Source: an uncultured Fibrobacteraceae bacterium (GTDB lineage: Bacteria; Krumholzibacteriota; Krumholzibacteriia; LZORAL124-64-63). Taken from it: a stretch of 64,000 nt of DNA. The DNA is taken from contig CAYMCR010000001.1 of the NCBI GenBank assembly GCA_964389015.1, forward strand, positions 4,561-68,560, in the 5' to 3' direction. Below are positions 23,725 through 56,743 of this stretch, piece by piece; within the stretch, counting starts at the first letter, position 1, and each line of letters begins with the position of its first letter. The translations under genes and the position numbers were made by a program. Below the pieces are notes generated by a model. That model had not been told where the DNA came from. It saw only the letters and a list, made by a program, of their open reading frames with translations, and ran no database searches.

Positions 23725-24953
23725 TCGTCGACCCCTTCCGCCGGACCGGACGTGTCGGGAGGCGCCGTCGCGGGTGCCAGGGTATCGACCGCTACGGGTT
23801 CGAGCGGCGGCGGCGCCCGGCAGGGCCGCAGCGAATCGGACACGGACGGCAACGTCTGGATGAGGTCCAGTCCGGGCTCGATCTCCAAAGGCTCGGCCGT
23901 GATATAGGGCTCCCAGCGCCAGAGCAGCGAGTCGGGCAGGGTGACTGAATCGGGCAGGGCGCTCAACAGGCTGTCGCCGTCCAGATCCGCAAAGAGGATC
24001 GCGCGCACCTGTCCCGGCCCCGCGGGCGCGAAGACCGTGGTGTCGCCGTGGAACACCATTGCCTGGCCAGCCGGCGGCGCCAGAAGATGGAAGGGCACGA
24101 AGCCCGTGTCGTTGTCGGCGATCTTTTGCGTCCAGCCGAAGAGGACCCGTTCGTCAACGTTGAGGCTGTCCAGGACGCCCAGTAGCCGACCCGGAGTATT
24201 CAGGTCGAAGAGCGTATGGACGCCCGCATCGGCCGTTGGTGTCGCGGCCAAGAGGTCGATCTCGACGGGCAGCAGACGCTGGGGTTCGTTGTCGGCGGGT
24301 CGCAGGTCGCCGTTGCGGTCCTGGAAAGCCCGCAGGAGGTAGGGACCGCCGGGCACGACCAGCCACGGCAGGACGAAGTGTCCGGAACTGTCGGCCTCGG
24401 TACGTCGCAAGATGTCCTGCTGGAAGTACTCGAGCGAGTCGGGCGGTACGGCATACAGCTCGACCACGGCGCCGGCCGCCGGCTCGTCCTCGAAATACAA
24501 GCGGCCGGTGATCGCACCCGGCGGCAGGCTGTCCGCGGTGGCCAGGGGGTAGCGACGGGAGTGTTCGCTCGCGACGCGGTGGACATCGGCATGCCCGCTC
24601 GGGATCTCGACGACGATCACCGTGTCGGGCGGCAGCGGGTCGCTGAACTCGACGGTGGCGCTGCGGCGCCCGTGCCACTTGGTGCTCTTGATCTCCAGGG
24701 GCGGATAGAAATGGACGAAGCGCAGCGCGGGCAGGGGATCCACCTTCTCGGAGAAGGTGATCTCGATCTTGTGCAGACCGACCAGTCCGACCGTTCCCGA
24801 ATCCGGCATCACCTGCACGACCACGGGCGGCGTCTCGTCGGCGGGCCCGCCGCGAGGCGATTCGATGGTCGCGCAGGCGGTCGCCAGGCAGATCACCAGG
24901 GCTAGGGCCGCCGCGGCGACCCGACTCCCGTTGCTGCTACGGCCGGCAGCCAC
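23721..24953 (-). CDS. Hypothetical lipoprotein (signal peptide + lipobox LATAC), Pro-rich; function unknown
   Basis: AAAALALVICLATACATIES is a type-II signal peptide with a lipobox Cys. Beta-rich middle region. Low-complexity Pro/Leu-rich C-terminus. I recognise no family. Confidence 0.5.
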   Translation of the reverse strand: MAAGRSSNGSRVAAAALALVICLATACATIESPRGGPADETPPVVVQVMPDSGTVGLVGLHKIEITFSEKVDPLPALRFVHFYPPLEIKSTKWHGRRSATVEFSDPLPPDTVIVVEIPSGHADVHRVASEHSRRYPLATADSLPPGAITGRLYFEDEPAAGAVVELYAVPPDSLEYFQQDILRRTEADSSGHFVLPWLVVPGGPYLLRAFQDRNGDLRPADNEPQRLLPVEIDLLAATPTADAGVHTLFDLNTPGRLLGVLDSLNVDERVLFGWTQKIADNDTGFVPFHLLAPPAGQAMVFHGDTTVFAPAGPGQVRAILFADLDGDSLLSALPDSVTLPDSLLWRWEPYITAEPLEIEPGLDLIQTLPSVSDSLRPCRAPPPLEPVAVDTLAPATAPPDTSGPAEGVDE

Positions 24954-33294: not shown

Positions 33295-36342
<3,048 letters not shown>

Positions 36343-36353: not shown

Positions 36354-37034
36354 CTAGACGAACCAGGTGTTGCAGAACTGGATGACGGCGGCCGTCGCCA
36401 GGGGCATCGTCAGATTGTCCCAACGTCCCGGCGTCCAGCGCTCCATGGTGGCGGATGCGACGCCGCCGGCGACGGTCAGCAGCAGGGAAGCGTCGCTTAC
36501 CAGCGAAATGACGAGCATCGAGACCAGGAAACAGGCCGACGTGCCGACCCAGGTCTTGTTGCCGCGCTTGCTCACCACGGGTGCCCGGGTGCCGTCACCC
36601 TTCTCCAGGCCGAGCTGTTGCCGGCGGAAGGAGACTGCCTGTCCCACGATGGCCGCCGCCGAATCGCCCCAAGATAAGCACAGGATGCCCGCGGCCGCCG
36701 GTACGGCGGGGAACAGGAAAGACGTGATCGTGGCCCCGATCATCATCACCGAGGCACCGGAGAGCGTATAGCGCTCGTCGCGCCGGAAGATCAGCGGGAA
36801 GGTCCGGTATAACCAGAGCGCCCAGCGTTTGGTGGCCAGACGGGCCAGGTCGGTGGAGATGACGAAAACCGTCGCCGCCGCCAGGCCGGCCGTGCACAGC
36901 GGCTCGTCGATCAGCAGCACCCAGACGGCGAAGATCGTCGAGGATATATGAATGGCCTTGCGGCCCCATTCGACGCTCTCGCGCCAGGTACGGGGCTGCG
37001 GTCTGGTTGAGCTGCCGGTCTTCTGAGGTGTCAT
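36354..37034 (-). CDS. Polytopic membrane protein of the CTP-dependent transferase/kinase superfamily (CdsA / dolichol-phytol kinase-like)
   Basis: About 226 aa with 5-6 TM segments. Motifs WGDSAAAIVGQ and KRGNKTWVGT resemble the GDxxAxxxG / K..KTWxG signature of the CTP_transf_1-like family. Start set at the MTPQKT ATG, +/-3 nt. A 12-nt gap separates it from the secA start. Confidence 0.5.
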   Translation of the reverse strand: MTPQKTGSSTRPQPRTWRESVEWGRKAIHISSTIFAVWVLLIDEPLCTAGLAAATVFVISTDLARLATKRWALWLYRTFPLIFRRDERYTLSGASVMMIGATITSFLFPAVPAAAGILCLSWGDSAAAIVGQAVSFRRQQLGLEKGDGTRAPVVSKRGNKTWVGTSACFLVSMLVISLVSDASLLLTVAGGVASATMERWTPGRWDNLTMPLATAAVIQFCNTWFV

Positions 37035-37053
37035 AGTCCCTTTTCTCTGCCAC

Positions 37054-39234
37054 TTAGCGCGTCTCGGAAGCCGCTGGCTGCTCGCCCTCGGCACCACGCA
37101 GTATCCAGGCATATATCAGTCTGTCGATCAACACCTTTTCCACGTAGCGCCGGGTTTCGGGATAGCCGATCCAGGCCAGGAAGGTGGTCGGCGGTGCTCC
37201 CGCCCCCAGTTGGGCGTCCCAACGCTTGACGGCGGACGGACCGGCGTTGTAGGCCGCCAGCGTGCGGTAGGGATCGCCGTCGTAGCGGCGGCTGTTATTG
37301 GCGAGCAGGTCGAGACCGGCCGCCAGGGAGGCCGCGAGTTTGCGCCAGACCACTTCGCCTTCGTGGTAGCCGCGTCCCGGGTAGTGGAAGGGCATGATCT
37401 GCATCCAGCCCAGGGCGCCGGAACGGGAGCGCACGGCTGGATCGAAAAGCGACTCGTTGCGGGCGACGGCGAGGACCAGGGCGGGATCGACACCGCTTGC
37501 CCTCAGCTTGTCCATTACGAAGGGAGCCGCCGGCACCGGATAGAGCAGAAGCAGATACTCGTCCTGAGTGAGTCCCGGACGAGACATGGCTACGGTGGTC
37601 GCGAGCTGTCCGCGGGCATCGCCTAGCAGCAGGGATACGCCCAGCAGGAGGTGCTTCTCGAGATTCGATTTGGCGCGGGCGGTCAGGTCGGTGATCGGTG
37701 TCTCGGAGGCCGCGAGAGCACCGTCAGCACGTTCGACCATGGCGCAGGCCAAGGCCCAGTCCAGGGCCCTCTCCCGCCAGGGCATGAGGCGCAGGGCGTG
37801 GTCGATGGCTCGCCGGGCAGAGAATTCCGGTGAGGTGGGCGGTCCACCCGCCGCGAACTCCTGGTCCAGTATGTCGCCGTACTCACGCCAGCGCAGATCG
37901 GCATGATTACGGGCCAGACGTGCGCCGAGACGCGCCCAGGTGCGCCAGGCCCTTGCTCGGGCTTTGGTCGGATCCGCGTTGAACGGCGCCGTGACCAAGC
38001 GGTCGGCCTGGCCGGCCCGGACGAGGTCGGCGGCACTTGCAAGTCGACCGTTTTCAGTAGCCGTGCTCCGCGGGTCAAGCAGCTCGAGCAGCAGCTCCGA
38101 GGCGCGAGACATGCCCTGGTGCGCCGAAAGAGCCGCGACACGTTCGGTCTCGTGGCGAATCCGCTCGATAACACGGCGTTTGCCGCTTCTCTCCGCCGAC
38201 ATCTGCGCGGTCCTCAGATTCGGTACGACGCTACCCCAGTAACCGGCCGAGGCCTGCTTGTCGGCCGCCCGGCGCAGATATCCTGCCCGGTGTTCGTGAG
38301 TGATTCCGGGCAGAGACGCCAGCTTCTCGGCCACGGTGGCCGTGTGTCCGAGCAGTCGCCACCGCCCTCGCAGCCAATATTCCTGAAGTCGTGCGCCGAC
38401 AGGGAGATCCGGGTATAAGCCAAAGTGCCGCCTCAAGGCCGACTTGGGCAGGACGGCGGCCCCGAGCGCTGATTTCGCATCCCGCGCAAAGGGGCTCCGG
38501 TCGATATCGCGCGAAGTGAGACCGGTTGTACCCAGACTGGCCAGGAAGAGGACCGTTTTCAAGTCCCCGGGAGACGGGGGCAGCAATGGCCGTCCCAGAT
38601 GGCGTCTATGCACCGACCAGATGGCCCAGCCTGAATTTCGATCGTAGGGCCCGAGGTCGAGGAGTTCGGGCCAGAGAACATCCGGTGCGGGCGTCCGACC
38701 GAGCCCAGCACGCAAGGCGCGCTGGCGAAGCGACCAGACGAAGCGCTCCAGATCATCGATGGAACCGTCGGGCAGGGACGTCAATAGAGAGTCGATCCTG
38801 GCCAGGGCACCGCTGAGCTCACCGGCCTGAACCATGTCGAGGACGCTCATGGTCATCTCGCCCTTCCACTGGGCCGGACGCGTGAGCCGGTCACCGCAAC
38901 ACTCGAGATCATCACGGGTTTCCCAGAGACGAATCCGGTCGGTCAGCCAGGTGCGCGCCTCGGTGTCGGTCGTGAAGCAGGACCTCAGACCGATTGCTTG
39001 ATCGAGGAAGGCCGCAGGATCGTGCGACGCTACAGCCCAGGCCGCCTCCCACGCCGTAGACCGCTGGGCCGGTGCGAAGAGGCCGGCGGGCCAGCCGTCG
39101 ACCAACTCGAGGTCCTCGGCCGCGCGGTGGCGTCCTACGCGCAGGTCCTCGACGAAAGGATCCAGCGGCGGCGTCGCCGAGGCACACGTCGCGTACAGGA
39201 GGAGCGCAAAGACCAGGATCCGTCCGGTGCTCAT
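37054..39234 (-). CDS. slt: Soluble lytic murein transglycosylase (Slt70-like; superhelical N-domain + C-terminal SLT domain)
   Basis: Start moved to ATG 39232-39234 (MSTGRILVFALLLYATCASA signal peptide), which overlaps the protease stop (ATGA). C-terminal SLT motif ESLFDPAVRSRSGALGWMQIMP...AYNAGP. Confidence 0.8.
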   Translation of the reverse strand: MSTGRILVFALLLYATCASATPPLDPFVEDLRVGRHRAAEDLELVDGWPAGLFAPAQRSTAWEAAWAVASHDPAAFLDQAIGLRSCFTTDTEARTWLTDRIRLWETRDDLECCGDRLTRPAQWKGEMTMSVLDMVQAGELSGALARIDSLLTSLPDGSIDDLERFVWSLRQRALRAGLGRTPAPDVLWPELLDLGPYDRNSGWAIWSVHRRHLGRPLLPPSPGDLKTVLFLASLGTTGLTSRDIDRSPFARDAKSALGAAVLPKSALRRHFGLYPDLPVGARLQEYWLRGRWRLLGHTATVAEKLASLPGITHEHRAGYLRRAADKQASAGYWGSVVPNLRTAQMSAERSGKRRVIERIRHETERVAALSAHQGMSRASELLLELLDPRSTATENGRLASAADLVRAGQADRLVTAPFNADPTKARARAWRTWARLGARLARNHADLRWREYGDILDQEFAAGGPPTSPEFSARRAIDHALRLMPWRERALDWALACAMVERADGALAASETPITDLTARAKSNLEKHLLLGVSLLLGDARGQLATTVAMSRPGLTQDEYLLLLYPVPAAPFVMDKLRASGVDPALVLAVARNESLFDPAVRSRSGALGWMQIMPFHYPGRGYHEGEVVWRKLAASLAAGLDLLANNSRRYDGDPYRTLAAYNAGPSAVKRWDAQLGAGAPPTTFLAWIGYPETRRYVEKVLIDRLIYAWILRGAEGEQPAASETR

Positions 39235-42050
39235 CGGAGCAAGGTCACCTTTCGACTGAAGACGCGGCTGCCGTCGTGGGTAGAGAGTCTCAGCAGATAG
39301 AAGCCCGCCGGTACTGTCCGTCCCGCCTCGTCGCGACCGTCCCAGTTCAACTGATAGGTGCCGCGAGCGAGCCACCACTCGCGCACCTGGCGCCCGCGCA
39401 GGTCGTAGACGCCGAGCCGGCAGGCCAGCCCTTCGTACTGCACGAGGAAACGCGTGTCGCCGGAGAAGGGGTTCGGCCCCGGCTTGCCGAGGAAAAGCAC
39501 GGGCTCGACGGTCGGCGCGACGAGCACTCCGTGCCGCGAGACGACCTCGCCGATGTCGATGCGCACCCTGGCCCTGAGCAGCGTATGTTGCGACAGGGCG
39601 CCGGCCGGCAGGACCAGCTGGTTCGCGGGGAACAGCATGTCAGCGGGCGCATGGCCGAAGGGCACGCCGCCTTCCCAGATCGTCGTCCAGACGGTCCCGC
39701 CGTCGAGACTCGCCTCGAGGGTGATCCACTCCGGCGTCTCCCATGGCCAGGACAGGGCCACGCCGTCGCGGGTCTCGTCCCAGGCGGGCGCGAAGGGCGC
39801 CGCAGCCGACGCGGGGTTCACGAAATCCATCCTGGCGATGAGCCAGCCGCGCCCGCGCCACAGGGGATCGCTGGCGAAGTGCAGGCCGAGCCGCGTCAGA
39901 CCCGGCTCTGGCTCTGGCAGAGGGAAATAGTCGATCCGCCAGCGGGGGGAGTCTTCGGCGGTCAGGTCGCCCAGTCCGATGAAAGCCGGCTGCCCCAGCA
40001 GAGGGTTGGCGACGGAGCTGTCGATCGAGCCCGGGTACCCCCCCGCCGGCACGAGCAGGTTGACTGATCCCTCGTCATCGTGGGCCGAGACTTGTGCGCC
40101 GTCGGTGCCCATCAGGGGCTCGTAGGCGTGCGCGTCCAGGGCGTGGATCATGCGCAGGACGCGGCCGTCCGTGTGAAAGGGTGGCGACAGGATACGGGCC
40201 TCGGCGGCGTTCTGGTAGGTCACGTCGGGCCACGACGCGCCGTCCTCGAACGCGCCGCCGGTGCAAGCGAGCAGGGGGACAGCGGGCAGGCCGGGCGCCG
40301 CGTTCGCCGGCCACGCATGCCATCGCGTGTCGTCACCGCCGACCAGCATTTGCACCCAGCCGCCGGTCAAGGGAACGCTCAGGGCCAGAGGCGATTCCTC
40401 TTGGCGCCAAAGCCAGCTGCGTTGGTACACACCGAGGGTCTCGCCGTCCCTCACGAGTTCGATCGCGAACAGGGTGTACGCCCCCGCGGGCGGTTCACCT
40501 GCCGGCAACCAGACGATGGGTTCGCTCAGGGTCCATACACCGCCGCCCGCGTGCAGCAGATCGCGCGCGACAGACAAAACGCCGGGCGCGAAAGCGCCCC
40601 AGTTGTCGAGGGGGATGAACAGGCTCACGTTCACGGCGATAGTCTCGGCGGTCACGGAGGGATCGAGGATCTCGATCGCGATGAGGGAATCCTCCCCCGT
40701 CGTCGTAACACTCAGCTCCAGCTGCAAGGGGTGCCCGGGGAGCGAGTAGTCGACGGTGACGCCGTCGTCGACCAGCGAGAAGGCACAGGCGATGCCGCTG
40801 GGGCCGGTGTAGGCGTCGCTGTCGGGGATGGAAGTCTGGTCCCAGTTCGCCGGGCCGGCGCCGGGCGGAAACATGTCGCCCGGTCCGCCGGACGACTCCC
40901 CCGCGGCCAGGTCGTCGATCCCGTCGGCTTCCACCAGACGCACGCGGAGATGGGACTGCTCGCCGACGGAATAGGCCCCGTCCGGCACCGACTCGTCCAC
41001 ATGATAGACGACGAGACGTGGTTCGGGGAAGGCTGCATCGTAGGGCGCGTCGTCGAAACCGCCGCGTACCTGGAGCAGGAAGTACTCATCGTCGGTGATG
41101 CCGTCGACGGGAAACCTCAGCACCTCGCTTGTCAGCAGGGTGTCGGTCGCCACGGCGCCGCCGAGCGGTTGCCGGGAAACGACCCAGCCCAACTGGGCGG
41201 CGCTGTAGGCGTCGAGCAGGGCGGCGCCGGTGCCGTCGCCACGTCCCCAGGCGCCGGCCGCCATGAGGCTGAAGGCCCCGAGTCCGCCGAGGCTCACCGC
41301 GCTGTCGGCGTCCGGCGACAGGAAGGGGTCGTAACGGTCCTCGAGACCCAGCAGGTGGGCCGTCTCGTGGGCCCAGATCCCAGGTCCGCTGTGCAGGCTG
41401 GCCACCGCGTAGTGCTGGGCGGCGATCCCGTCCAGAAGGTAAGGCGTCTCCAGGTAGTATTGCAGGGGGACCACACGGCCGTTCACGGGATCGTTCTCCA
41501 GACCGGGGGCGGCGTGCAGGACGAGCACGCCGTCCACGACGCCGTCACCGTCGGCGTCCGCGGAGCCTAAGGGGACGCCTGCCGCGGCGGCGCCCGTGAT
41601 GCTTTGCCGGGCCAGGGCGCGGGTGCGCGTGAAACCGTTGAGATACAGGTCCGAGTAGTCGGCGGCTTCGCCGTCGAGGTGTACCAGCGGTGACAGGACG
41701 ATGCGCAGCCAGCCGGGGATTCCGCTGACCGCGCTGAAGTAGCGTTCCAGGGTCTCCCCGTCCAGACCGGCCAGGCGGGGGGACAGATCTGCGGCGGCGT
41801 TCCAGCCGTTGGGCAGTCGCTTGTCGGCGAAGTCGACGGGGACGACCAGCAGATTGAACGCAGACGTTCCCTTGGCGGGGTCGGCGCTCAGTTCACGGAC
41901 CGCGACGCGACGGGCGGCACGCCAAGCGGACAAGGTGGGATCGGGAGACGGGGCCGCGTGAGCGAGCGTGGCGCAGAAGCACGCGACCGTCCCCAGCAGG
42001 ACGGCCGCCACGTGCGATTTCGGAAGCCTGCTTGTCAAGGCGCTCATCAT
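39231..42050 (-). CDS. Secreted M6-family (immune inhibitor A-like) zinc metalloprotease with a T9SS-type C-terminal sorting domain
   Basis: Signal peptide MMSALTSRLPKSHVAAVLLGTVACFCATLAHA. Zn site WAHETAHLLGLEDRYD (HExxH..E..Y), typical of M6/InhA. The C-terminal ~85 aa (KPGPNPFSGDTRFLVQYEG...GVYDLRGRQVREW...GFYLLRLSTHDGSRVFSRKVTLLR) match the Por secretion tail / FlgD-Ig-like CTD pattern. Confidence 0.8.
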   Translation of the reverse strand: MMSALTSRLPKSHVAAVLLGTVACFCATLAHAAPSPDPTLSAWRAARRVAVRELSADPAKGTSAFNLLVVPVDFADKRLPNGWNAAADLSPRLAGLDGETLERYFSAVSGIPGWLRIVLSPLVHLDGEAADYSDLYLNGFTRTRALARQSITGAAAAGVPLGSADADGDGVVDGVLVLHAAPGLENDPVNGRVVPLQYYLETPYLLDGIAAQHYAVASLHSGPGIWAHETAHLLGLEDRYDPFLSPDADSAVSLGGLGAFSLMAAGAWGRGDGTGAALLDAYSAAQLGWVVSRQPLGGAVATDTLLTSEVLRFPVDGITDDEYFLLQVRGGFDDAPYDAAFPEPRLVVYHVDESVPDGAYSVGEQSHLRVRLVEADGIDDLAAGESSGGPGDMFPPGAGPANWDQTSIPDSDAYTGPSGIACAFSLVDDGVTVDYSLPGHPLQLELSVTTTGEDSLIAIEILDPSVTAETIAVNVSLFIPLDNWGAFAPGVLSVARDLLHAGGGVWTLSEPIVWLPAGEPPAGAYTLFAIELVRDGETLGVYQRSWLWRQEESPLALSVPLTGGWVQMLVGGDDTRWHAWPANAAPGLPAVPLLACTGGAFEDGASWPDVTYQNAAEARILSPPFHTDGRVLRMIHALDAHAYEPLMGTDGAQVSAHDDEGSVNLLVPAGGYPGSIDSSVANPLLGQPAFIGLGDLTAEDSPRWRIDYFPLPEPEPGLTRLGLHFASDPLWRGRGWLIARMDFVNPASAAAPFAPAWDETRDGVALSWPWETPEWITLEASLDGGTVWTTIWEGGVPFGHAPADMLFPANQLVLPAGALSQHTLLRARVRIDIGEVVSRHGVLVAPTVEPVLFLGKPGPNPFSGDTRFLVQYEGLACRLGVYDLRGRQVREWWLARGTYQLNWDGRDEAGRTVPAGFYLLRLSTHDGSRVFSRKVTLLR

Positions 42051-42062: not shown

Positions 42063-43613
42063 TCACTCCCATTCAATGGTGCTCGGCGGCTTGCTGCTGA
42101 CGTCGTAGACCACACGGTTGATGCCGGGCACCTCGTTGATGATGCGGTTGCTCACGCGCGCCAGCACTTCGTCGGGGATACGGGCCCAGTCCGCGGTCAT
42201 GCCGTCTTGGCTGGTGACGGCTCGCAGGGCCACCACCGCCTCGTAGGTGCGCTGGTCCCCCATGACGCCCACGGTCCGGATGGGCAACAGTACGGCGCCT
42301 GCCTGCCAGATCCTGTCGTACTCGCCGCTCTCGAGCAGCTCCTGGATGAATATATGGTCGGCCTGCTGCAGGAGTCTAACCCCGTCGCGGGTCACCTCCC
42401 CCAGAATCCGCACGCCCAGTCCCGGTCCCGGGAACGGATGGCGCATCAGCAACGTGTCGGGAATGCCCAGACTGCGCCCGACGCGCCGGACCTCGTCCTT
42501 GAAGAGCTCGCCGAGGGGTTCGAGCAACTCGAAGCCCAGCTCCTCCGGCAGGCCGCCCACGTTGTGGTGGGTCTTGATGATGTGCGAGGGGCCGTTCACC
42601 GAGACCGACTCGATGCGGTCCGGATAGAGGGTGCCCTGGGCCAGGAAGGCGAAGGGCCCCAGGTCCAAGGTCGCGGACTTGAAGACTTCGATGAAGGTGT
42701 TGCCGATGATCTTGCGCTTGAGCTCAGGCTCGGTCACGCCGCGCAAGCCGTTCAGGAAGGCGTTGCGGGCGTCGACGCGCAGGACCGGACGGTGCAGGAA
42801 GGCGTTGAGGTTGCGCTCGACCTCGCTGGCCTCGCCGAGCCGCAACAGACCGTTGTCGACGAACACGGTGTGCAGCTGCTCGCCGACCGCCTGGTCGATC
42901 AGCGTGGCAGCGACGGTGGAATCGACACCGCCCGAGACGCCGCACAGCACCTTGCGCTCGCCCACGCGCTCCCGGATCTCCACCACCGTGGATTCCACGA
43001 AGGTGGCGGCCGACCATTCGGTGTCGATGGCACAGATGTCGCGGCAGAAGTTGCGCAGGATCTGCAGGCCGTGCTCGGTGTGGACCACCTCGGGATGGAA
43101 CTGCACGCAATAGAAGCCGCGGCCCTCGTCGCCGGCGGCGGCGAAGGGGATCGAGCCGGAGCTGGCGAGAGGCGTGAACCCCGCGGGCAAGCTGCCGACC
43201 CGGTCGCCGTGACTCATCCAGACGTCCTGCCGGTCCGGCGTGTCGGCGAACAGACGGCTGCGCGTTCCGCAGTCGATGGTCGCGGGGCCGTATTCCCGCT
43301 GCGTCGAGGCCTCGATCGTGCCGCCCAGCTTGCGACACATGAGCTGCATGCCGTAGCAGATGCCGAGCAGCGGCTTGCCCTGCCCGAAGAGCTCGTTCCC
43401 GATGTCGGGTGCGCCCTCCTCGTAGACCGAGGACGGACCGCCGGAAAGGACGACGCCCCTGATCTCATCGCGTTCGAGCAGTTCCCGATACCGGTCATAG
43501 GGGTAGATCTCGGAGAAGACACCGACCTCGCGCAGACGGCGCGCGATGAGCTGGGTGTACTGGGATCCGAAATCTAGGACCGCCACCTCGGGCTGATGTC
43601 GCTGCTGGTTCAT
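42063..43613 (-). CDS. guaA: GMP synthase (glutamine-hydrolysing)
   Basis: GATase-1 N-terminus (VAVLDFGSQYTQLIARRLRE; GICYGMQL catalytic Cys). ATP-PPase SGGVDSTV. C-terminal ...IEWE. Confidence 0.95.
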   Translation of the reverse strand: MNQQRHQPEVAVLDFGSQYTQLIARRLREVGVFSEIYPYDRYRELLERDEIRGVVLSGGPSSVYEEGAPDIGNELFGQGKPLLGICYGMQLMCRKLGGTIEASTQREYGPATIDCGTRSRLFADTPDRQDVWMSHGDRVGSLPAGFTPLASSGSIPFAAAGDEGRGFYCVQFHPEVVHTEHGLQILRNFCRDICAIDTEWSAATFVESTVVEIRERVGERKVLCGVSGGVDSTVAATLIDQAVGEQLHTVFVDNGLLRLGEASEVERNLNAFLHRPVLRVDARNAFLNGLRGVTEPELKRKIIGNTFIEVFKSATLDLGPFAFLAQGTLYPDRIESVSVNGPSHIIKTHHNVGGLPEELGFELLEPLGELFKDEVRRVGRSLGIPDTLLMRHPFPGPGLGVRILGEVTRDGVRLLQQADHIFIQELLESGEYDRIWQAGAVLLPIRTVGVMGDQRTYEAVVALRAVTSQDGMTADWARIPDEVLARVSNRIINEVPGINRVVYDVSSKPPSTIEWE

Positions 43614-43632: not shown

Positions 43633-45177
43633 TCAATGCCGGAAATGTCTGCGGTTCGTATGGATCAGCGTGACGCCGAGACGTTCGGCGGCCGCGATGA
43701 CTTCCTCGTCCCGGATCGAGCCGCCCGGCGCGATGACACCGGTCACGCCGGCCGCGTGCAGGTGCTCGATGCTGTCGGCGAAGGGGAAAAAAGCGTCGGA
43801 GGCGCAAACACAGCCGTGCAGATCGAGTTCCTGGTCGCTCGCCTTGCGGATGGCGATGCGGGTGGAATCGACCCGGCTCATCTGTCCCGCGCCGATACCA
43901 AGCGTGTTCTCGTGATCGCCGAGTACGATGGCATTGCTCTTGACGTGCTTGCAGACGCGCCAGTTCAACGTCAGCGCGGCGTGCAGGCGCTCGTCCGGGG
44001 CGGGGCCGGCGACGTGCTGCCAGTCGTCCAGCTCCGGAAAGCCCTCATCCTCCTCCTGGTGGAGTTGCACCTGTCCGTAGGCGCGTCCCTGGCCGCGCGT
44101 CGCCGCCGCGAAGTTGTCGAGATCGCAGGTGAGCACGCGCAGGTTCTTCTTCTTCTGCAACGTGGCCAGCGCGCCGTCCGAGAAGGCCGGCGCCAGCACC
44201 ACTTCGCAGAAACGCTTGCGCAGGATCGCCACCGTGTCGTCGTCGACCTCGCAGGTGAAGGCGAAGATGCCGCCGAAGGCGGAGTCCGGGTCGCAGCGCA
44301 AGGCGCGTTCCAGGGCGGCGGCCGGCGTGGGGCCGGTCCCCACGCCACAGGGGTTGGTGTGCTTGATGGCGGCGCAGCAGATGCCTTCGAGATCGCCGAC
44401 GAGCTTGGCCGACGCGATCACGTCGATGAGATTGTTGTAGGAAAGCGTCTTGCCGTTCCACTGGCGCATGCCGAGCCCCGCCAGGGGATCGTCCGTATCG
44501 TCTCCCGGCAGGAAGAGTTCCGCCTGCTGATGGGGGTTCTCGCCGTAGCGCAGCTCCACACCCAGGTGACCGTCGTGGACGTCGCCCGCGAAGTAGTCGG
44601 CGATCTGGGCGTCGTAGTCCGTGACCAGGGCGAAGGTCTCCGTGGCCATGCGGCGCCGGAATTCCGCAGCGGGGAAACCAGCGCCGGTCCCGCAGGCCTG
44701 GACGAATTCGTCGTAGTGTTGCGGATCGCTGAGCACGCAGACCCGGTCGTGGTTCTTGGCGGCGGCGCGCAGCAGGGAGGGACCACCGATGTCGATCTTC
44801 TCGATGACGGCCGCATGTTCGGCTTTCGACGCCACCGCCGCCGCGAAGTCGTAGAGATTGCACACCACCACGTCGAAGGGGCTCACGCCCAGTTCGGCCA
44901 CGTCCGCGAAGTCCGTTTCCCGCGCTCCCAGAATGCCGCCGAAGATCCGCGGGTGCAACGTCTTGACCCGCCCGCCGAAGATCTCCGGGAAGTCGGTCAC
45001 GTCGTCGACCTCGGTCACGGAAAACCCCTCGTCGCGCAGATGCGCCGCGGTCCCCCCGCTGGCCACGAATTCATAGCCGTGACCCTGTAGAGCGGTAGCC
45101 ACGTCGGCCAGGCCGGATTTGTCCGTCACGCTGAACAGAGCCCGCCGTGGGCGCTTCAGTTCAGGATCTTGTGCCAT
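43633..45177 (-). CDS. purH: Bifunctional AICAR transformylase / IMP cyclohydrolase
   Basis: MGS-like N-terminus [15 protein letters not shown]...GGTAAHL...[17 protein letters not shown]-terminal domain. 514 aa. Confidence 0.95.
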
Positions 45178-46061
45178 CTGCGGGCCTCCTCGGCGAAGAG
45201 AATGTGGAGCACTTCGAGGTAACGTTGTGAGGTGCGTGCGAGGATCTCATCCGGCAGCACCGGGGGTGGGGGCGTCTGGTTCCAGTCGCGGGTGTCCAGG
45301 TGGTTACGCAGGATCTGCTTGTCCCAGCTGGGCGGCTCCTCCCCCGGCACGTGCTCGCTGGCTGGCCAGAAACGGCTGGAGTCCGGCGTGAGCACCTCGT
45401 CGATGAGCGCGAGCTGTCCGTCGATGGTGCCGAACTCGAACTTGGTGTCGGCGATCAACACCCCCCCCGCCTTACCGTAGGCTGCGGCGCGCGTGTAGAG
45501 GTTCAGCGTCAGGGACTCGAGTTCGGACGCGGGCTCGTCACCGATCAACGAGCGCATTTGATCAAGGTCGATATTCTCATCGTGCCCGGTCTCGGCCTTG
45601 GTCGACGGCGTGAACAACGGTCGGGACAATTGTTGCGACTTGAGCAGGCCCTGCGGCAGGGTGTGGCCGCAGATGGTTCCGTCGGCCAGGTAGGAGCGCC
45701 AGCCCGAACCGGTGATGTAGCCACGGGCGATGCATTCCACCGGAAAGGGCGTCGCCTTGCGCACCAGCATTGCGCGTCCCGCCAGTTCCGCGCGCAGATC
45801 GCGGAAGGGTGGCGGGAAGAGATCCGCCTCGGCCGTGATCAGATGGTTGGGAACTTCGTTGAAGTAATTCAGCCATGCCAGTGTCATCACTGTAAGTACG
45901 CATCCTCGACCGGGGACATTCTGATCCATCACGACATCGTAGGCCGAGATGCGGTCGGTGGCGACGATCATCAACTCCTCGCCGAGATCGAATATCTCGC
46001 GGACCTTGCCCGTGCGGTCCGGCCGCAAGCCGAGATCGACCGTGCTGCGCAATGACTGCAT
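45156..46061 (-). CDS. purC: Phosphoribosylaminoimidazole-succinocarboxamide synthase
   Basis: Start moved to the internal ATG (MQSLRSTVDLGLRPDRTGKVREIFDLGEELMIVATDRISAYD). About 301 aa, eukaryote-like long PurC form. The coordinate comes from track-frame arithmetic, +/-3 nt. Confidence 0.9.
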   Translation of the reverse strand: MQSLRSTVDLGLRPDRTGKVREIFDLGEELMIVATDRISAYDVVMDQNVPGRGCVLTVMTLAWLNYFNEVPNHLITAEADLFPPPFRDLRAELAGRAMLVRKATPFPVECIARGYITGSGWRSYLADGTICGHTLPQGLLKSQQLSRPLFTPSTKAETGHDENIDLDQMRSLIGDEPASELESLTLNLYTRAAAYGKAGGVLIADTKFEFGTIDGQLALIDEVLTPDSSRFWPASEHVPGEEPPSWDKQILRNHLDTRDWNQTPPPPVLPDEILARTSQRYLEVLHILFAEEARRWHKILN

Positions 46062-46123
46062 CTTTCTCCCGTTTCGCTGGTTTTTGGGTTCGTTCCGGGT
46101 CGTAAACCGGGTGGGACGCGGGC

Positions 46124-46152
46124 ATGTTACGCGCCTCATTGCCGGGTGTCAA
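46124..46152 (-). promoter_or_regulatory. Candidate sigma70 promoter for purC-purH-guaA (-35 TTGACA, 17-nt spacer, -10 TAACAT)
   Basis: On the minus strand: cTTGACAcccggcaatgaggcgcgTAACATgcc. Located between the comEC stop and the purC start. Confidence 0.4.
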
Positions 46153-48661: not shown

Positions 48662-50118
48662 CTGTTGCGGCCTCTCTGCTTCGAGAGGTACAGCATCCTG
48701 TCCGCGTTACGGTAGAGCTCCTCCGGCGTCTCGCCGGCACCGGGGTATTCCACGCCCCCGAAGGAGATGGTGACGCGTAGCGGCTCTTCGGCACCGGGAT
48801 CCGTCAACCTGAGATTGGCGATCCGGACCTGGATACGGGTGACGATGTCGTGGGCGGCCTCGAGGTCCGTGTCGGGCAGGACCAGGGCGAACTCTTCGCC
48901 GCCGACACGACAGACGAGATCGATCCGCCGCAGACCCTGTAGCAGCTCGCGGGCCACGGCCTTGAGTACACGATCGCCGGCGGGATGGCCGTGGCGATCG
49001 TTGACGTCCTTGAAGTGGTCGATGTCCCCCAGCAACAAGACCAGCTGTGATTTGCGACGGTGCGCGCGTTCCATCTCGAGCACGAACTGCTCGTCGAAGA
49101 AAGCGCGGTTGTTGACACCCGTGAGATTGTCGGTGTGCACCAGACGACTCATCAGAAGGGTCTGACGCCACCCGTTGGTTACGAAGCGAGAGATGCGCAG
49201 CGCCAGGTTGATCAAGGTCTCGCGTTCGATCGGCTCGGTGTGGATCACGTAGAGCAGCCCCACCTCGCTACTCTCACCTGCGCCTTCGGACGCCGCCACT
49301 TCAGCCGGCGGGTAAAGCGGCACGGCGACGCCCGCCGTAAAACTAACCTTTTCGCCGCCTTCCCCGCTACGACGACGCAACTGCGACGGCAGTTCGTTGC
49401 GCGACGGAATCCAGACTACTTCGCCCGCGACCCTCGTCACGGCCCAGAAGGGCCGGTCCTCCCGCGGACTGGTGCCGATGTTCGGCAAGGGTTCGGGAAC
49501 GTCCGCCGGCTTGAAGAGTTCGATGTGGAGCTCGGCGTGCGGGAAGGTCGGCTTGAGAAGTTCCACCACGTCCTGGAGTATGCAGGCGACACCGCTGCCG
49601 GTCGTGCGGGTGACCGTCAGATCCTGCGCCCGCTCCATGGCGTTGAGAAGACGTTCGTGCAACTCGGGATCGTGTGTCGACAGTGGATCCGGGTCGGGGA
49701 GTCGCTCCTCCACAGGAGCGGTCTCTTGGACTGTTTCTGCGACGGCTGCTTCTTCCGTCGGTTGCGCAGCCGGGTAGAACGGCGACAGGTCGAGCAGGGC
49801 GCCGTGGTCCTGCAACGCGTAGGTGAGATCAGCGCCCGCTTCGTCGCCGCCGACCGTAACCCTGACCAGGTCGCCGCGGCGGATCATATTGGTGACCAAC
49901 GAGCGTCCGTACTTCAGCAGAGCCTCCGGGTCGTTCGCCGCCAGGGCCACGCGCAGAGCGCGGCGCAGTGGTGTGGCGACCTGCGCTACGGAAAGGAGAT
50001 GCTGTATGAGTGCTCTCAAGGCGATGTTCGTCTCCCCTGCAGATGTCACCTTGACGCGCTTGAGTTGCACGTATATTGGTACGGGACTGGCAAGTTCGCA
50101 CGTATATAATTGTGACAC
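48592..50118 (-). CDS. Diguanylate cyclase (GGDEF domain, active-site GGEEF) with a ~330-aa N-terminal sensory region (GAF-like)
   Basis: C-terminal NLTGVNNRAFFDEQ...LLGDIDHFKDVNDRHGHPAGDRVL...RVGGEEFALVLPDT is the canonical GGDEF domain with an intact GG(D/E)EF. GTG start at 50118. Confidence 0.85.
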   Translation of the reverse strand: MSQLYTCELASPVPIYVQLKRVKVTSAGETNIALRALIQHLLSVAQVATPLRRALRVALAANDPEALLKYGRSLVTNMIRRGDLVRVTVGGDEAGADLTYALQDHGALLDLSPFYPAAQPTEEAAVAETVQETAPVEERLPDPDPLSTHDPELHERLLNAMERAQDLTVTRTTGSGVACILQDVVELLKPTFPHAELHIELFKPADVPEPLPNIGTSPREDRPFWAVTRVAGEVVWIPSRNELPSQLRRRSGEGGEKVSFTAGVAVPLYPPAEVAASEGAGESSEVGLLYVIHTEPIERETLINLALRISRFVTNGWRQTLLMSRLVHTDNLTGVNNRAFFDEQFVLEMERAHRRKSQLVLLLGDIDHFKDVNDRHGHPAGDRVLKAVARELLQGLRRIDLVCRVGGEEFALVLPDTDLEAAHDIVTRIQVRIANLRLTDPGAEEPLRVTISFGGVEYPGAGETPEELYRNADRMLYLSKQRGRNRCHFWNPDGDPILTLPRYSAPSD

Positions 50119-50216
50119 ATTGTGCGCTCACTTGCAATATAGATAGTCTACTTCCTTTCAGCGAACTCGTTTTCAGACAGATGTCACGGTGCATTCAGAA
50201 GTACGGGAGAACAAGG

Positions 50217-51956
50217 ATGTCAAGCCTCATCGACCAGGGAAAGCACTCCCCCCGCGGCATAGCCGCGCTGGTCCTCGCCCTGATCTGCCTCGTAGGATGT
50301 TCGCCCCGACTGACTACGACCGGAGTGTCGGCGGACACGCCCCCGGCGCAAGTGGCGCCGGTCTCCGCGGTCGCCGCGGCCGACTCGCAACTCATCGCCG
50401 CACCGTTGCCCACGCAACCTCCCGAGGGCGCCGCCGCCGCCGCCTTGCGCAACGTGCTGGAAGACCGCCCCGACCTTGCCCAGCTCGACCGGATCTATCG
50501 CCAGGCCCTGGAACTCCTCTCCCGCACCCAGTACGAGACCGCCGAGGATCTGCTCTTCGTCCTCAAGGAGGAAGCCGTGGCGATGATGCCCGCCGATCGC
50601 GACAGCGTGGCGCGCAGCTTTCTCACCAGCCTGGACAGGCGGGTCACCTTGCTGGGGGGGGTGCTCGCCGAGGATCGCGTGTTGAGCCTGTCTGTCGCGG
50701 CGGACGATTCCCTTCTGGCTGCCGCCTACGACAACCTGCACGGCCTGTCCTTCCCGGATTCCCTGATTCCCGTCTCGGGCGCGCGGAGCAGCGGCATCCA
50801 GAGCGATCTGCTCGGCGTGGACAATGCAGCGGTGCGCCAGTGGTTGGATTATTTCACGGGGAGCGGACGCGCCAGCATTCAGATATGGCTGGACCGCAAG
50901 GCGGCCGTGGATTCCCTGATCTATCGCTACCTCGACGAGGCCGGCCTGCCGCGCGAACTGATCTACCTGGCCGCCATCGAGAGCGGTTTCAACACGCACG
51001 CTCGTTCCGGCGTGGGAGCCGTCGGCCCCTGGCAGTTCATGCCTGGTACCGCCCGTCATTATCATCTGCGTTGCGACTGGTGGGTCGACGAGCGACGCGA
51101 TCCCGAGTTGTCCACGCGCGCGGCCGTCACCTATCTCTCGCAACTCTATCACCATTTCCGGGACTGGGCCCTCGTGCTGGCCGCCTACAATACCGGCGAA
51201 CACCGCGTAGACCGGTCGATCCGACTCACGGGGCACGATAATTTCTGGGATCTGCACATGCCCTGGCAGACGCGCAATCACGTGCCCAAGTTCATCGCCG
51301 TGGCGCGCATCTGCGAGGATCCCCTCGCCCACGGCCTCGATCCGACGCTCGGGACCAAGCTGGGCTACGACGTCGTGGACGTGACCGACGCCACCGACCT
51401 GGGTTTGATCGCGGACTGCGCCGGTGTGCCCAAGGAGGAGGTCGTTGCCTTGAATCCCGGCTTGTTGCGGCAGGCCACCCCGCCGGGCGCCGGTGATTAT
51501 CCCGTCCGGGTTCCCACCGGCACGGGTGTCCGCTGCCTGAGCAAGCTGCGGGCGATACCGCGGGCCGAACGCCTCACCTGGCGCCGGCACACGGTGCTCA
51601 GGGGCGAGACGCTGGGCGCCGTCGCCACCCGCTACGGCACGTCGGTGGCAGACATCGCCGAGCTGAACGGCCTCCGCAACGTGGCGCTGATACATCCCGG
51701 GGACAAGCTGCTCATTCCCATGCCCGCCGTGCTGGCCGATCGGGCCGAACAACGGGTGGCCGCCAGCGGCCACTACGTTCCACCCAGCGGTTACGAGCGG
51801 GTCAGCTATCGAGTCAAGAGTGGAGACACCCTCACCGGCATCGCGCGCAAGCTGGGCGTCAGCCTGCGCCACCTGCGACGGGTGAACAACATGCACGGCA
51901 CCAGCCTGATCAAGCCGGGTCAGAGGGTCTTCGCCTACAGACCCCCAAACCCCTGA
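50217..51956 (+). CDS. mltD: Membrane-bound lytic murein transglycosylase D-like lipoprotein (SLT domain + 2 LysM)
   Basis: ATG at 50217 with a GGGAGA RBS. Lipoprotein signal ALVLALICLVGCSP. SLT catalytic region LAAIESGFNTHARSGVGAVGPWQFMPGTA...AYNTGE. Two C-terminal LysM domains (HTVLRGETLGAVATRYGTSVADIAELNGL; YRVKSGDTLTGIARKLGVSLRHLRRVN). Confidence 0.85.
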   Translation: MSSLIDQGKHSPRGIAALVLALICLVGCSPRLTTTGVSADTPPAQVAPVSAVAAADSQLIAAPLPTQPPEGAAAAALRNVLEDRPDLAQLDRIYRQALELLSRTQYETAEDLLFVLKEEAVAMMPADRDSVARSFLTSLDRRVTLLGGVLAEDRVLSLSVAADDSLLAAAYDNLHGLSFPDSLIPVSGARSSGIQSDLLGVDNAAVRQWLDYFTGSGRASIQIWLDRKAAVDSLIYRYLDEAGLPRELIYLAAIESGFNTHARSGVGAVGPWQFMPGTARHYHLRCDWWVDERRDPELSTRAAVTYLSQLYHHFRDWALVLAAYNTGEHRVDRSIRLTGHDNFWDLHMPWQTRNHVPKFIAVARICEDPLAHGLDPTLGTKLGYDVVDVTDATDLGLIADCAGVPKEEVVALNPGLLRQATPPGAGDYPVRVPTGTGVRCLSKLRAIPRAERLTWRRHTVLRGETLGAVATRYGTSVADIAELNGLRNVALIHPGDKLLIPMPAVLADRAEQRVAASGHYVPPSGYERVSYRVKSGDTLTGIARKLGVSLRHLRRVNNMHGTSLIKPGQRVFAYRPPNP

Positions 51957-51965: not shown

Positions 51966-53048
51966 CTAGAAATGGGCGGTGATGCTGACGCGGTGGGTTT
52001 CCTCGTCGATCTCGAGCACGTCCCCTGCATAAGCATAGTCGATGGTCAGCATGGCGAGGCGGAAACCGGCGCCCATGGTGATGTCGTCGAGGGACCAGCC
52101 CGAATCGAAGCCTCCCCGCAGGAAGACCTTCTCGTGCAGGGCGAGTTCCCCGCCGCAGTGCACGTTCGTGCTGAGAGAGCCGGTGTGGTACTGATCGGCG
52201 GCCCGGCGGTTCTCGAAGCGCGTTTCGGCGCTGGTGGCCAGTGTGATGCGCGCGTCCCACGACGGCAGGTGCAGATTGTAGGCGAGAGCGGGCACGATCG
52301 TGGGTGCGATCTTTTCGTTCTTGGCATAGCCGTCCGGTCCCGACCAGGAGAGATAGGTCCTGGTGGCGTCCTGCAGTTTCAAACCGAAATCCAGGTCGCG
52401 CCAGATCCCGCGGCGCAGGGCGCCCAGGTCCAGGCCGATACCCACGCTCGAGTATTCGCCGACGCTCTGGCGGATGAACTTCACGGTCCCGCCCAGTTGC
52501 CAGTCGCCCTTGCGTTCGGCGTAGCTGGCGAAGAGCGCCAGCTCGGAATCGCTGGCGAACTTGATCTGGTCCTGGATGGCGAACAGGCCCTGGAGTTCGT
52601 CGTCGGTCACGGTACCGTCGCCGTTGGCATCCAGCTGATCGAAGAGATGATCGGTGAGCGGAATATCATCGATGCCGAGGCGAATAGCCGAGATGGCGAA
52701 AGCGCCGTCCTGGCCGCCGAGCAGGGACCAGCCCACGGGCTGGGCGTAGGCCACGTAGTCGCGGTCGATCAGATCGCCGAAGCGTTCGGCGTGCATCAGC
52801 AACAGGTTGCGACCGTCGGTACCTACGAGGCCGGCGGGATTCCAGAAGGCGGCGGAAGGGTCGTCGGCCACCGCCGTGAAGGCACCCCCCATGGCGAGTG
52901 CGCGCGCGCCGCCACCGTCCTCCATGAAAGCGCCGGCGTACTTGTCGGCCAAGGCTTCCGTGGGCGAGGAAGCGATGACGACGAAAAGACTGATAGCGCA
53001 GACGGAGAGGGCGCTGATATGCGTCCGGTTGGTGCCGGTGAACAGCAT
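51966..53048 (-). CDS. Outer-membrane beta-barrel protein of the FadL/OmpP1-like family (possible T9SS PorV/LptO-type)
   Basis: Start at MLFTG (ATG 53046-53048), with a GAGGAT RBS and signal peptide ...VVIASSPTEALA. The N-terminal motif GARALAMGGAFTAVADDPSAAFWNPAGL resembles the FadL-family N-terminal hatch motif (E. coli [23 protein letters not shown]). Alternating beta-strand pattern, ending in an aromatic residue (F). Confidence 0.5.
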   Translation of the reverse strand: MLFTGTNRTHISALSVCAISLFVVIASSPTEALADKYAGAFMEDGGGARALAMGGAFTAVADDPSAAFWNPAGLVGTDGRNLLLMHAERFGDLIDRDYVAYAQPVGWSLLGGQDGAFAISAIRLGIDDIPLTDHLFDQLDANGDGTVTDDELQGLFAIQDQIKFASDSELALFASYAERKGDWQLGGTVKFIRQSVGEYSSVGIGLDLGALRRGIWRDLDFGLKLQDATRTYLSWSGPDGYAKNEKIAPTIVPALAYNLHLPSWDARITLATSAETRFENRRAADQYHTGSLSTNVHCGGELALHEKVFLRGGFDSGWSLDDITMGAGFRLAMLTIDYAYAGDVLEIDEETHRVSITAHF

Positions 53049-53073
53049 GTAGGATCCTCGCATTCTCAGGGGT

Positions 53074-53100
53074 GAGAAAAGCCGCTCCGGTACGGACGGC
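53074..53100 (-). terminator. Possible Rho-independent terminator downstream of the sigma54 activator gene
   Basis: Imperfect GC hairpin GCCGUCCGUACCGGAGCGGC, followed on the minus strand by UUUUCUC. 66 nt after the activator stop. Confidence 0.4.
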
Positions 53101-53165
53101 TCATCACACATGATACGCCAATGATGCGGCCGGAGCCAAGCCCCCAGTACAGGGCCAAGTGCATC

Positions 53166-54800: not shown

Positions 54801-55292
54801 TCAGTTCTGCCGGTGCAGGTACTCCACATCCATGCCGTTGATGAAGGACTCGTAGGCCACGTTGGCGCCGGTTGCACGACCGCTCTTGAGCGCGATCTCA
54901 TCCAGCGTTTCCGCAGCTCTGCGCAGGCGCCGCAGCATCGCATCCAGGGCCTCCAACCCTAGCTCCCCCGTCTCCCCACGGCCGGGCTGTGCGGGTACGG
55001 CAGCCTGGACCGCGCGATAGGCGGCCAGACCCGCGGCGGCAGGTGCGGCTTTTATTTCGGATCGTGCCTGGACTTCGCTTTGACGTGGGCGCGTCGCATG
55101 AGCCGGCAGCGCGGGTTTCCAGTTCGTCAGGAGCACCGGCCAGGTCAGGCCGGGCAAGCGCCGGCGCAGGCGCTGGATCTGGATGTAGACCACCACGACG
55201 ATGGCCGTGCCGCCGGCTGCCAGAGCTACCGCGCCCAGCCAGGCCATGGTCTTGTTGCCGCTCTCGAGTAGATTGAGTATGTCCAGACCCAT
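54801..55292 (-). CDS. Hypothetical single-pass membrane protein (163 aa) in the flagellar regulatory segment
   Basis: N-terminal TM helix AWLGAVALAAGGTAIVVVVYIQI. Ala/Pro-rich linker. C-terminal helical region. No family recognised. Located downstream of fliA and upstream of the fleQ-like gene. Confidence 0.4.
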   Translation of the reverse strand: MGLDILNLLESGNKTMAWLGAVALAAGGTAIVVVVYIQIQRLRRRLPGLTWPVLLTNWKPALPAHATRPRQSEVQARSEIKAAPAAAGLAAYRAVQAAVPAQPGRGETGELGLEALDAMLRRLRRAAETLDEIALKSGRATGANVAYESFINGMDVEYLHRQN

Positions 55293-56726: not shown

Positions 56727-56743
56727 GCTCGGGTCAACAGCGA

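Follow-up and report, generated by a model that had tools for sequence, protein, structure and literature searches.

Does the segment directly upstream of secA, where genes for an M6 metalloprotease, a Slt-type lytic transglycosylase and a small polytopic membrane protein lie end to end on one strand, encode a dedicated functional module, or are these genes ordinary members of a longer conserved series? The initial annotation favoured the former, considering the trio not to be a standard housekeeping arrangement and proposing a role in cell-envelope remodelling or prey lysis. We examined the segment in the context of a 64-kb window (the whole stretch of DNA analysed here) and of related genomes, and consider it likely that the segment is a part of a conserved one-strand housekeeping array, containing a coupled protease–transglycosylase pair and an accessory dolichol-kinase-like (DolK-like) gene.

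Gene layout and transcription signals

All genes of the segment are located on the minus strand. The gene of the M6 metalloprotease with a T9SS-like C-terminal domain (39231–42050, 939 aa; M6 in what follows) is followed by the Slt-type lytic transglycosylase gene (SLT; 37054–39234, 726 aa), the gene of the polytopic membrane protein with a CdsA/dolichol-kinase fold (36354–37034, 226 aa), and secA (33295–36342, 1015 aa), whose product contains all SecA Pfam domains and scores 1027 bits with the PRK12904 model (cut-off 814). The M6 stop codon and the SLT start codon overlap by 4 nt (ATGA); the spacer between SLT and the membrane-protein gene is 19 nt, the one between the latter and secA is 11 nt, and an 84-nt gap lies downstream of secA. 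Thus, the initial description of the trio as real, tightly packed, co-directional genes upstream of secA, with an overlap visible in the sequence, is correct.

The same packing is seen on both sides of the trio. Upstream, purC (45156–46139), purH (43633–45177) and guaA (42063–43613), all three assigned by Pfam and on the minus strand, are joined by short or overlapping junctions, and the guaA stop is 12 nt from the M6 start; downstream, such junctions continue through secA-smg-topA-trmFO-xerC-hslVU. Overlapping gene pairs elsewhere in the array are purC/purH, topA/trmFO and hslV/hslU. Overall, the minus strand carries approximately 46 of the 50 predicted genes of the window, among them the run comEC-purC-purH-guaA-M6-SLT-DolK-like-secA-smg-topA-trmFO-xerC-hslVU, and the gene content is housekeeping throughout, together with flagellar export genes (fliO-P-Q-R, flhB, flhA, flhF and fliA, at 55.7–63.9 kb). 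As equally short junctions join purC-purH-guaA to M6, an argument from spacing would make purine synthesis "coupled" as well; where unrelated housekeeping genes are densely packed along one strand for tens of kilobases, short spacers and overlaps cannot be taken to indicate functional coupling.

The combination of co-directional genes, short spacers and no signal between them, expected for an operon, is observed for the trio and likewise for the genes back to purC, and we infer that these genes are co-transcribed. No terminator- or promoter-like sites were found in the 11–19-nt spacers, which would have no room for one (the sigma-70-type consensus used may not be that of the phylum), and to this extent the spacing claim of the initial annotation holds. 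The scans themselves are uninformative, the counts of sigma-70-type promoters and intrinsic terminators being close to the shuffle expectation: seven terminator-like sites were found against 5.9 expected, every one within coding sequence, and near the membrane-protein gene just one promoter-like site was found, with a weak match (9/12). The window has a single copy of the Bacteroidota-type -7 motif TANNTTTG, where 2.8 would be expected, and hence this motif is of no use for locating promoters here. Promoters may be internal to coding sequence. Scanning the window for Rfam families and tRNA genes yielded no matches.

The GC content of the 36–42 kb region (0.66–0.70) falls within the range of the entire window (0.62–0.70). 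We rejected the possibility of a mobile or horizontally acquired island, given this composition, the position fixed across the lineage, and flanks free of mobile-element genes.

Conservation of the gene order

We compared 36 distinct related MAG loci, of which 29 were seeded on the membrane protein and 7 on the protease. It is the array as a whole, not the trio alone, that is syntenic across these loci, the conserved stretch spanning at least 23 kb. Of 32 related genome loci, 22 show the order M6-SLT-membrane protein-secA. In every sampled locus covering the junction, the gene directly after M6 is SLT or, if SLT is missing, the membrane-protein gene. In most loci secA follows one to two genes downstream of M6, although four loci have an approximately 1.8-kb TPR/DnaJ insertion before secA.

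Two of the three genes can be missing. The SLT gene is absent from three loci (L006, L031 and L035) with the rest intact, and there M6 overlaps the membrane-protein gene. The latter is absent from six of the seven protease-seeded loci (L087, L088, L089, L091, L092 and L093), again with the rest intact; these six read purH-M6-SLT-secA, without guaA, and the remaining one has the full set. The membrane-protein gene is accessory to the array and present in a part of the lineage only. Its homologues outside the lineage (21–33% identity), found in Chlorobi, Eisenbacteria, Gemmatimonadota and archaea, have no M6, SLT or secA gene beside them.

The sole specifically conserved coupling is the 4-nt overlap of M6 and SLT. 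It is seen in approximately 20 of 25 distinct loci and persists across orthologue pairs that are just 31–40% identical.

The M6 protease and its C-terminal domain

The protease comprises an N-terminal signal peptide, a catalytic domain (residues ~65–330), beta-sandwich middle domains and a C-terminal domain of approximately 85 aa (855–939). PF05547 matches it at 25.3 bits (cut-off 22, E = 1.1e-5), the aligned residues being just 208–281, and is also found in most orthologues; TIGR03296 remains below its cut-off (59.8 vs 110.8 bits), though residues 71–328 cover nearly the entire model. In the zinc site HETAH (228–232), H228, E229 and H232 are invariant among 33 orthologues, as are G235, R239 and Y240, and D238, the downstream acidic ligand, is conserved in at least 90%. 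In a Foldseek search with the AF2 model (pLDDT 81), the top four matches were to InhA2 (4yu5/4yu6, E = 4.8e-14, probability 1.00), followed by PorZ and PorU. The global TM-score against InhA2 is low (0.2–0.3), as the domain arrangement differs. The assignment to InhA-like M6 proteases is supported by the PF05547 match, the invariant HExxH and the best fold match.

With InhA/InhA2 of Bacillus (MEROPS M6) and PrtV of Vibrio, the protein shares the M6 domain, the HExxHxxGxxD-type zinc site and a multi-domain beta-sandwich C-terminal extension, and its best PDB fold match is the InhA2 zymogen (4yu5/4yu6). It differs from InhA2 in sequence (~12% identity in the structural alignment), and from InhA in having a putative T9SS-type C-terminal sorting domain, as opposed to a Gram-positive secretion context, and in being encoded by a single-copy gene that keeps one place among housekeeping genes throughout a lineage of phylum level.

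The C-terminal domain scores equally on FlgD_ig and Por_Secre_tail, unlike that of established cargo: FlgD_ig gives 24.4 bits (cut-off 27), and TIGR04183, applied to the domain by itself, gives 20.8 bits, under the cut-off of 23. PF18962 was not reported for this protein and is carried by 16 of 120 orthologues; the NCBI title of one orthologue is "T9SS type A sorting domain-containing protein". As in T9SS type A cargo of Bacteroidota (gingipains, with PorV/PorU/PorZ attachment), an N-terminal Sec signal is combined with a C-terminal beta-sandwich of approximately 85 aa, and the likeness extends to the motifs PNP...G...W-DG...G-Y...K-V, weak matches to the PorU and PorZ C-terminal domains, and the near-threshold TIGR04183 score. 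The host lineage, in contrast, is not Bacteroidota, and we found no literature linking Krumholzibacteriota to T9SS.

A gene of the PorV/PorQ-family outer-membrane beta-barrel proteins is also located nearby (51966–53111, minus strand). Its product scores 100.7 bits with NF033709 PorV_fam (cut-off 90) and 147 bits with PorV2 (below 325), and a PorV-family gene keeps the same array position in two of the protease-seeded loci, L087 and L088. This gene is indirect evidence that the organism may possess a T9SS-type sorting apparatus. Core T9SS genes (SprA/Sov, PorK-N, PorU) were not found within the 64-kb window, nor did an HMM of the M6 C-terminal domain identify a second carrier in it. The same HMM matched unrelated proteins in Eisenbacteria and Thermochlorobacter loci.

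The lytic transglycosylase

SLT consists of a signal peptide, an N-terminal region of approximately 560 aa and a C-terminal catalytic domain (578–712; PF01464, E = 5.6e-21). The residues E594, S595, Q612, N663, A664 and G665, forming the E-S, GxxQ and AYNAG motifs, are invariant among 21 orthologues, and each orthologue, read from the overlapping start, begins with a signal peptide. Among PDB sequences, the best matches (LtgA, P. aeruginosa Slt and E. coli Slt70) involve the catalytic domain only, and in a profile search against PDB just profile positions 550–741 align. The N-terminal region has no family match, and a PDB sequence search yielded only weak matches to designed helical repeats, a helical-repeat fold being possible.

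The protein thus resembles family 1A enzymes (Slt70, LtgA, Slt) and Borrelia BB0259 in the C-terminal SLT domain with E-S, GLMQ-like and AYNAG motifs, in the signal peptide and in the length of the N-terminal region before the catalytic domain; it differs in that this region shows no sequence similarity to the U and L domains of Slt70. Hence the label "Slt70-type" stands for the catalytic domain with its Glu-Ser and AYNAG motifs, but not for the whole protein, which reaches 47.9 bits with the PRK11619 Slt70 model (cut-off 536) in the catalytic part only. The best family for all 21 orthologues, ahead of PRK11619 and below the threshold in each, is NF047373 (BB0259; 87.5 vs 234 bits for the SLT of the window).

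The small membrane protein

The best solved-structure match of the membrane protein is TmCdsA (4q2e), with fold similarity to CdsA, and the JGI label of its homologues is dolichol kinase. The alignment contains the conserved motifs GD...G, K-T...G and E-R...D-N...P, which we take to resemble the CTP/Mg-site motifs of the CTP_transf_1 clan. With the members of this clan (CdsA, dolichol kinase Sec59/DOLK, phytol kinase VTE5, COG0170) the protein shares a polytopic all-helical membrane architecture, but the Pfam and NCBIfam models miss it: neither PF01148 nor a related curated model matches even at E<=10, and the alignment profile retrieves nothing from PDB sequences at E<=10. Among ten distant relatives, two match PF01148 at 20–22 bits (cut-off 24), with no other Pfam or NCBIfam match. 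A loop of approximately 25 residues is inserted between its GD and KT motifs; the distant relatives P0066–P0068 and the L090 homologue lack it. Thus, the earlier description as CTP-transferase-like agrees with the fold and not with the sequence models. The protein is probably a CTP-dependent polyprenol kinase. To our knowledge, this bacterial branch has no characterised member, and we found no literature on the bacterial COG0170 branch.

Interpretation of the locus

The array order is conserved throughout a Krumholzibacteriota-like lineage (FCB superphylum) of uncultured bacteria, and under the favoured interpretation M6 and SLT, both with predicted Sec signal peptides, would be translationally coupled by the conserved 4-nt stop/start overlap. 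The protease, having an additional putative T9SS-type C-terminal sorting domain, would most likely reach the cell surface or be released into the medium, and act there as a degradative zinc protease. SLT would most likely be a periplasmic, general Slt-type enzyme of murein turnover, and the membrane protein would most likely phosphorylate polyprenol with CTP, serving lipid-carrier salvage.

A dedicated envelope-remodelling or prey-lysis operon, with three mutually dependent activities, could explain the tight spacing with its ATGA overlap, the recurrence of the trio in the related loci and the signal-free spacers, all the more as the three products are envelope-directed. We nevertheless regard it as very improbable. 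As the array is conserved across the lineage and two of the three genes can be absent, the neighbours remaining unchanged where SLT or the membrane protein is lost, we see in the trio a conserved gene order of the ordinary kind and no module specialised for lysis; moreover, guaA and purH are joined to M6 by the same spacing, and the membrane-protein homologues outside the lineage lack such neighbours. The proposal of prey lysis in particular finds no footing in the window, where no predation-related genes were found and nothing else suggests predation. Another alternative is that SLT is an enzyme of peptidoglycan penetration by the flagellar rod (BB0259/SltF-like), its coupling to the protease being incidental. 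NF047373, the family of the "flagellar assembly lytic transglycosylase", is indeed the top one for the orthologues, the window contains flagellar genes, as reportedly do Krumholzibacteriota MAGs (PMC10936416), and BB0259 is described as required for flagellar assembly in Borrelia (PMC8517470). But the similarity is sub-threshold and limited to the catalytic domain, the gene lies approximately 16 kb from the flagellar genes amid purine genes and secA, and a second, MltD-like transglycosylase is also encoded; hence we consider this role unlikely.

The M6/SLT overlap, being strongly conserved, is more specific than simple adjacency, and a genuine functional link could lie behind it. The two proteins could be physical or functional partners, for example, if SLT locally opened peptidoglycan to let large T9SS cargo through or to allow the machine to be assembled, or if M6 acted on peptidoglycan-linked periplasmic proteins. 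The retention of the overlap between strongly diverged orthologues is consistent with this, as are the overlap of M6 with the next gene where SLT is lost and the PorV-family gene within the same conserved array. Such overlaps, however, are common along the array, and the SLT-less genomes imply that the protease does not depend on SLT at the locus, which makes a partnership of this kind unlikely. Its extension to all three proteins seems to us still more doubtful, indeed highly improbable: a lineage-specific secretion partnership, where SLT would open peptidoglycan for T9SS-type export, by analogy with VirB1, EtgA and FlgJ of other trans-envelope machines, and the polyprenol-kinase-like protein would supply a lipid carrier anchoring the cargo.

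With the conserved housekeeping array as the preferred explanation, the locus has little significance beyond annotation, its products being new members of known families. What is gained is the annotation of three poorly modelled Krumholzibacteriota-like proteins, namely, an M6 protease that appears to be T9SS-type cargo, an SLT whose N-terminal region is undescribed, and a branch of dolichol-kinase-like proteins missed by Pfam and NCBIfam. Should the M6/SLT coupling prove functional, it would give a first indication that an enzyme is dedicated to opening peptidoglycan for T9SS-like export.

Gene layout of the locus

The genes for the 939-aa M6 protease (39231–42050), the 726-aa Slt-type lytic transglycosylase (37054–39234) and the 226-aa membrane protein (36354–37034) are followed by secA (33295–36342), the four being successive ORFs on the minus strand. 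The protease stop and the transglycosylase start share ATGA (...CTC CGA TGA GCA...), and the next two spacers, before the membrane-protein gene and before secA, are 19 and 11 nt long; re-reading the ORFs and junctions confirmed the initial annotation of these positions, overlap and spacings within one base. It had left out guaA, which ends 12 nt upstream of the protease gene, and, further upstream, purH and purC, with a 19-nt gap between purH and guaA and a 22-nt purC/purH overlap (45156–45177). The latter overlap is kept in most related loci and can be taken as an internal control, since it shows that overlaps are conserved elsewhere in the array too. All junctions from purC to hslU are at most 28 nt or overlapping, except for an 84-nt gap after secA. 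Thus, the close packing of the three genes is the local norm.

Conservation in related genomes

Marine metagenome contigs (ENA ERZ23498658 scaffold_67; JGI 3300007510) carry sequence identical to the window. When genomes were scanned with the membrane protein as the seed, 29 close loci (49–85% identity) were obtained, in MAGs that bear the labels Krumholzibacteriia, Latescibacterota, "Fibrobacteraceae" and "Gemmatimonas sp.", and approximately 50 distant ones (21–33%), in Chlorobi, Eisenbacteria, Gemmatimonadota, Planctomycetota and archaea. In tblastn searches with ten window proteins, the close group showed the full comEC-purC-purH-guaA-M6-SLT-DolK-secA-topA-trmFO array (SLT, the transglycosylase; DolK, the membrane protein), and no array neighbours adjoined the distant homologues.

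Several variants were observed. The transglycosylase gene is absent from L006/L007/L034, L031 and L035, where the protease stop overlaps the membrane-protein start, and guaA is absent from L004/L005/L036 and L030. In L025, L026, L027 and L033, a TPR gene and a DnaJ-TPR gene (about 1.8 kb; 10697–12351 in L026) separate the membrane-protein gene from secA, hence the adjacency to secA is not fixed. Protease orthologues led to seven more loci (36–40% identity), six of which (L087, L088, L089, L091, L093 and L092, only the last labelled Candidatus Krumholzibacteriota) have the order purH-M6-SLT-secA, lacking both guaA and the membrane protein; in the seventh, L090, no gene of the set is missing, and the membrane-protein homologue is shorter (199 aa).

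We conclude that the conserved unit is a lineage-wide housekeeping array rather than the three genes, and that the gene order reflects synteny specific to this lineage. The gene for the membrane protein is accessory, and neither it nor the transglycosylase gene is obligatory at the locus. The operon proposed initially is not refuted: the array is conserved, and in a motif scan promoter- and terminator-like sites were as numerous as in shuffled sequences, with none within the spacers of the three genes.

Features of the three proteins

The protease passes Pfam Peptidase_M6 (25.3 bits, cut-off 22) and falls below TIGR03296 (59.8 bits, cut-off 110.8). Residues H228, E229, H232, G235, R239 and Y240 of HETAHLLGLEDRYD are invariant among 33 aligned orthologues. 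The four best PDB matches to its AlphaFold2 model (pLDDT 81) are the Bacillus anthracis InhA2 zymogen (E 4.8e-14), and the type IX secretion proteins PorZ and PorU rank 5 and 37. The C-termini of PorU and PorZ are matched by the last ~85 residues, which score 24.4 bits on FlgD_ig (cut-off 27) and, taken alone, 20.8 bits on TIGR04183 Por_Secre_tail (cut-off 23). PF18962 is present in 16 of 120 orthologues among the matches listed, and one orthologue is named "T9SS type A sorting domain-containing protein" by NCBI. A minus-strand gene of the same array (51966–53111), kept in position in the distant relatives L087 and L088, encodes a PorV/PorQ-family outer-membrane protein (NF033709, 100.7 bits, cut-off 90; "PorV2", 147 bits, under the cut-off). 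Given these family, fold, C-terminal-domain and PorV/PorQ results, describing the protein as a T9SS-tagged M6 protease was reasonable, although the tag itself is near threshold and unproven. The protease is a divergent new member of the M6/InhA family. Eisenbacteria and Thermochlorobacter loci encode unrelated proteins that share this C-terminal domain.

In the transglycosylase, the SLT domain is clear (E 5.6e-21), and the catalytic E-S motif and AYNAG are invariant in 21 orthologues. The likeness to the nearest solved relatives, LtgA, Pseudomonas Slt and E. coli Slt70, is confined to the catalytic domain. For all orthologues the best-scoring model is that of Borrelia BB0259, with scores below threshold, and the N-terminal ~560 residues have no detectable relatives. 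We place the protein among the family 1 Slt-type transglycosylases as a new, divergent representative with an undescribed N-terminal region.

The membrane protein was initially called CTP-transferase-like, which holds at the level of the fold. Pfam and NCBIfam give no match even at E ≤ 10. A profile of 22 homologues recovered 6072 relatives; PF01148 matched two of ten sampled ones below threshold, and JGI labels homologues "dolichol kinase". The invariant residues D124, K160, G164, E198, R199, D206, N207 and P211 fall in motifs that we take to resemble the CTP/Mg site of the CdsA/dolichol-kinase clan. A ~25-residue loop, VSFRRQQLGLEKGDGTRAPVVSKRGN (residues ~135–160, low model confidence), separates the GD...G and K-T motifs and is shorter or missing in the L090 homologue and distant relatives; it is probably the reason why curated models miss this branch. 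The protein is both new to the clan and divergent; it belongs to a bacterial branch invisible to Pfam and NCBIfam, and may be a polyprenol kinase. One relative (P0177, 402 aa) is a dephospho-CoA kinase (CoaE) fused to a C-terminal domain of this family.

Possible roles of the three genes

The initial annotation suggested an unusual envelope-remodelling or prey-lysis module. This found no support; the loci without the transglycosylase or the membrane protein argue against interdependence, and a dedicated module is very unlikely. The specifically conserved coupling is limited to the protease and transglycosylase genes, which overlap by 4 nt in about 20 of 25 distinct loci; exactly at this junction, the orthologous transglycosylases start with a signal peptide. 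Across loci, these two proteins retain 31–63% identity to the window, and the flanking housekeeping proteins 56–89%. That the two are true partners is highly improbable. A flagellar transglycosylase would have a flagellar export cluster in the same window (fliO, fliP, fliQ, fliR, flhB, flhA, flhF-like and a fliA-type sigma factor; 55726–63854, minus strand; putative fliQ, 62266–62529), and we give this assignment a slim chance at best.

As a whole, the locus likely combines an exported protease, an Slt-type enzyme and a part-lineage polyprenol-kinase-like enzyme within a housekeeping array. The protease would act at the surface or be secreted, and the Slt-type enzyme, co-translated with it, would serve murein turnover in the periplasm; the polyprenol-kinase-like enzyme would accompany them in part of the lineage, all three genes being embedded in, and probably co-transcribed with, the neighbouring housekeeping genes. 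The modest points of interest are the DolK-like branch with its loop insertion, the transglycosylase N-terminal region and the conserved protease/transglycosylase overlap.

The surrounding gene array

By crude, GC3-based gene calling, the minus strand holds about 46 of 50 predicted genes, with spacers mostly ≤30 nt; Pfam scans covered almost all of them. The order is mutS, SPOR/TPR proteins, lapA, two methylthiotransferases, rpsA, cmk-plsC fusion, aminotransferase, rluB, scpB, scpA, trpS, xerD, uvrC, dapB, dapA, dapF, Big_5 protein, pyrB, hslU, hslV, xerC, trmFO, topA, smg, secA, the three genes, guaA, purH, purC, comEC, GGDEF protein, MltD-like gene, PorV-family gene, sigma-54 activator, fliA, flhF, flhA, flhB, fliR, fliQ, fliP and fliO.

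The MltD-like lytic transglycosylase gene (50076–51956; SLT and two LysM domains) is the sole confidently coding plus-strand gene, and is inverted relative to its neighbours also in L087–L089, L091 and L093. The minus-strand ORF overlapping it (50220–51896) has no family match and is probably spurious. Small ORFs of the flagellar region (54801–55292, 55346–55675, 56744–57064) also have no family match. The PorV/PorQ-family protein carries an EF-hand-like calcium-binding motif (residues 155–177). Cmk is fused to a PlsC-type acyltransferase domain in a single 500-aa minus-strand ORF (12073–13575). The cumulative GC skew climbs steadily on the plus strand, the mostly minus coding strand being slightly C-rich. 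Between dapF and pyrB, a minus-strand gene (23721–24953) encodes a protein of 410 aa that includes a bacterial Ig-like domain (Big_5), and a similar protein follows the pyrB homologue in L006.
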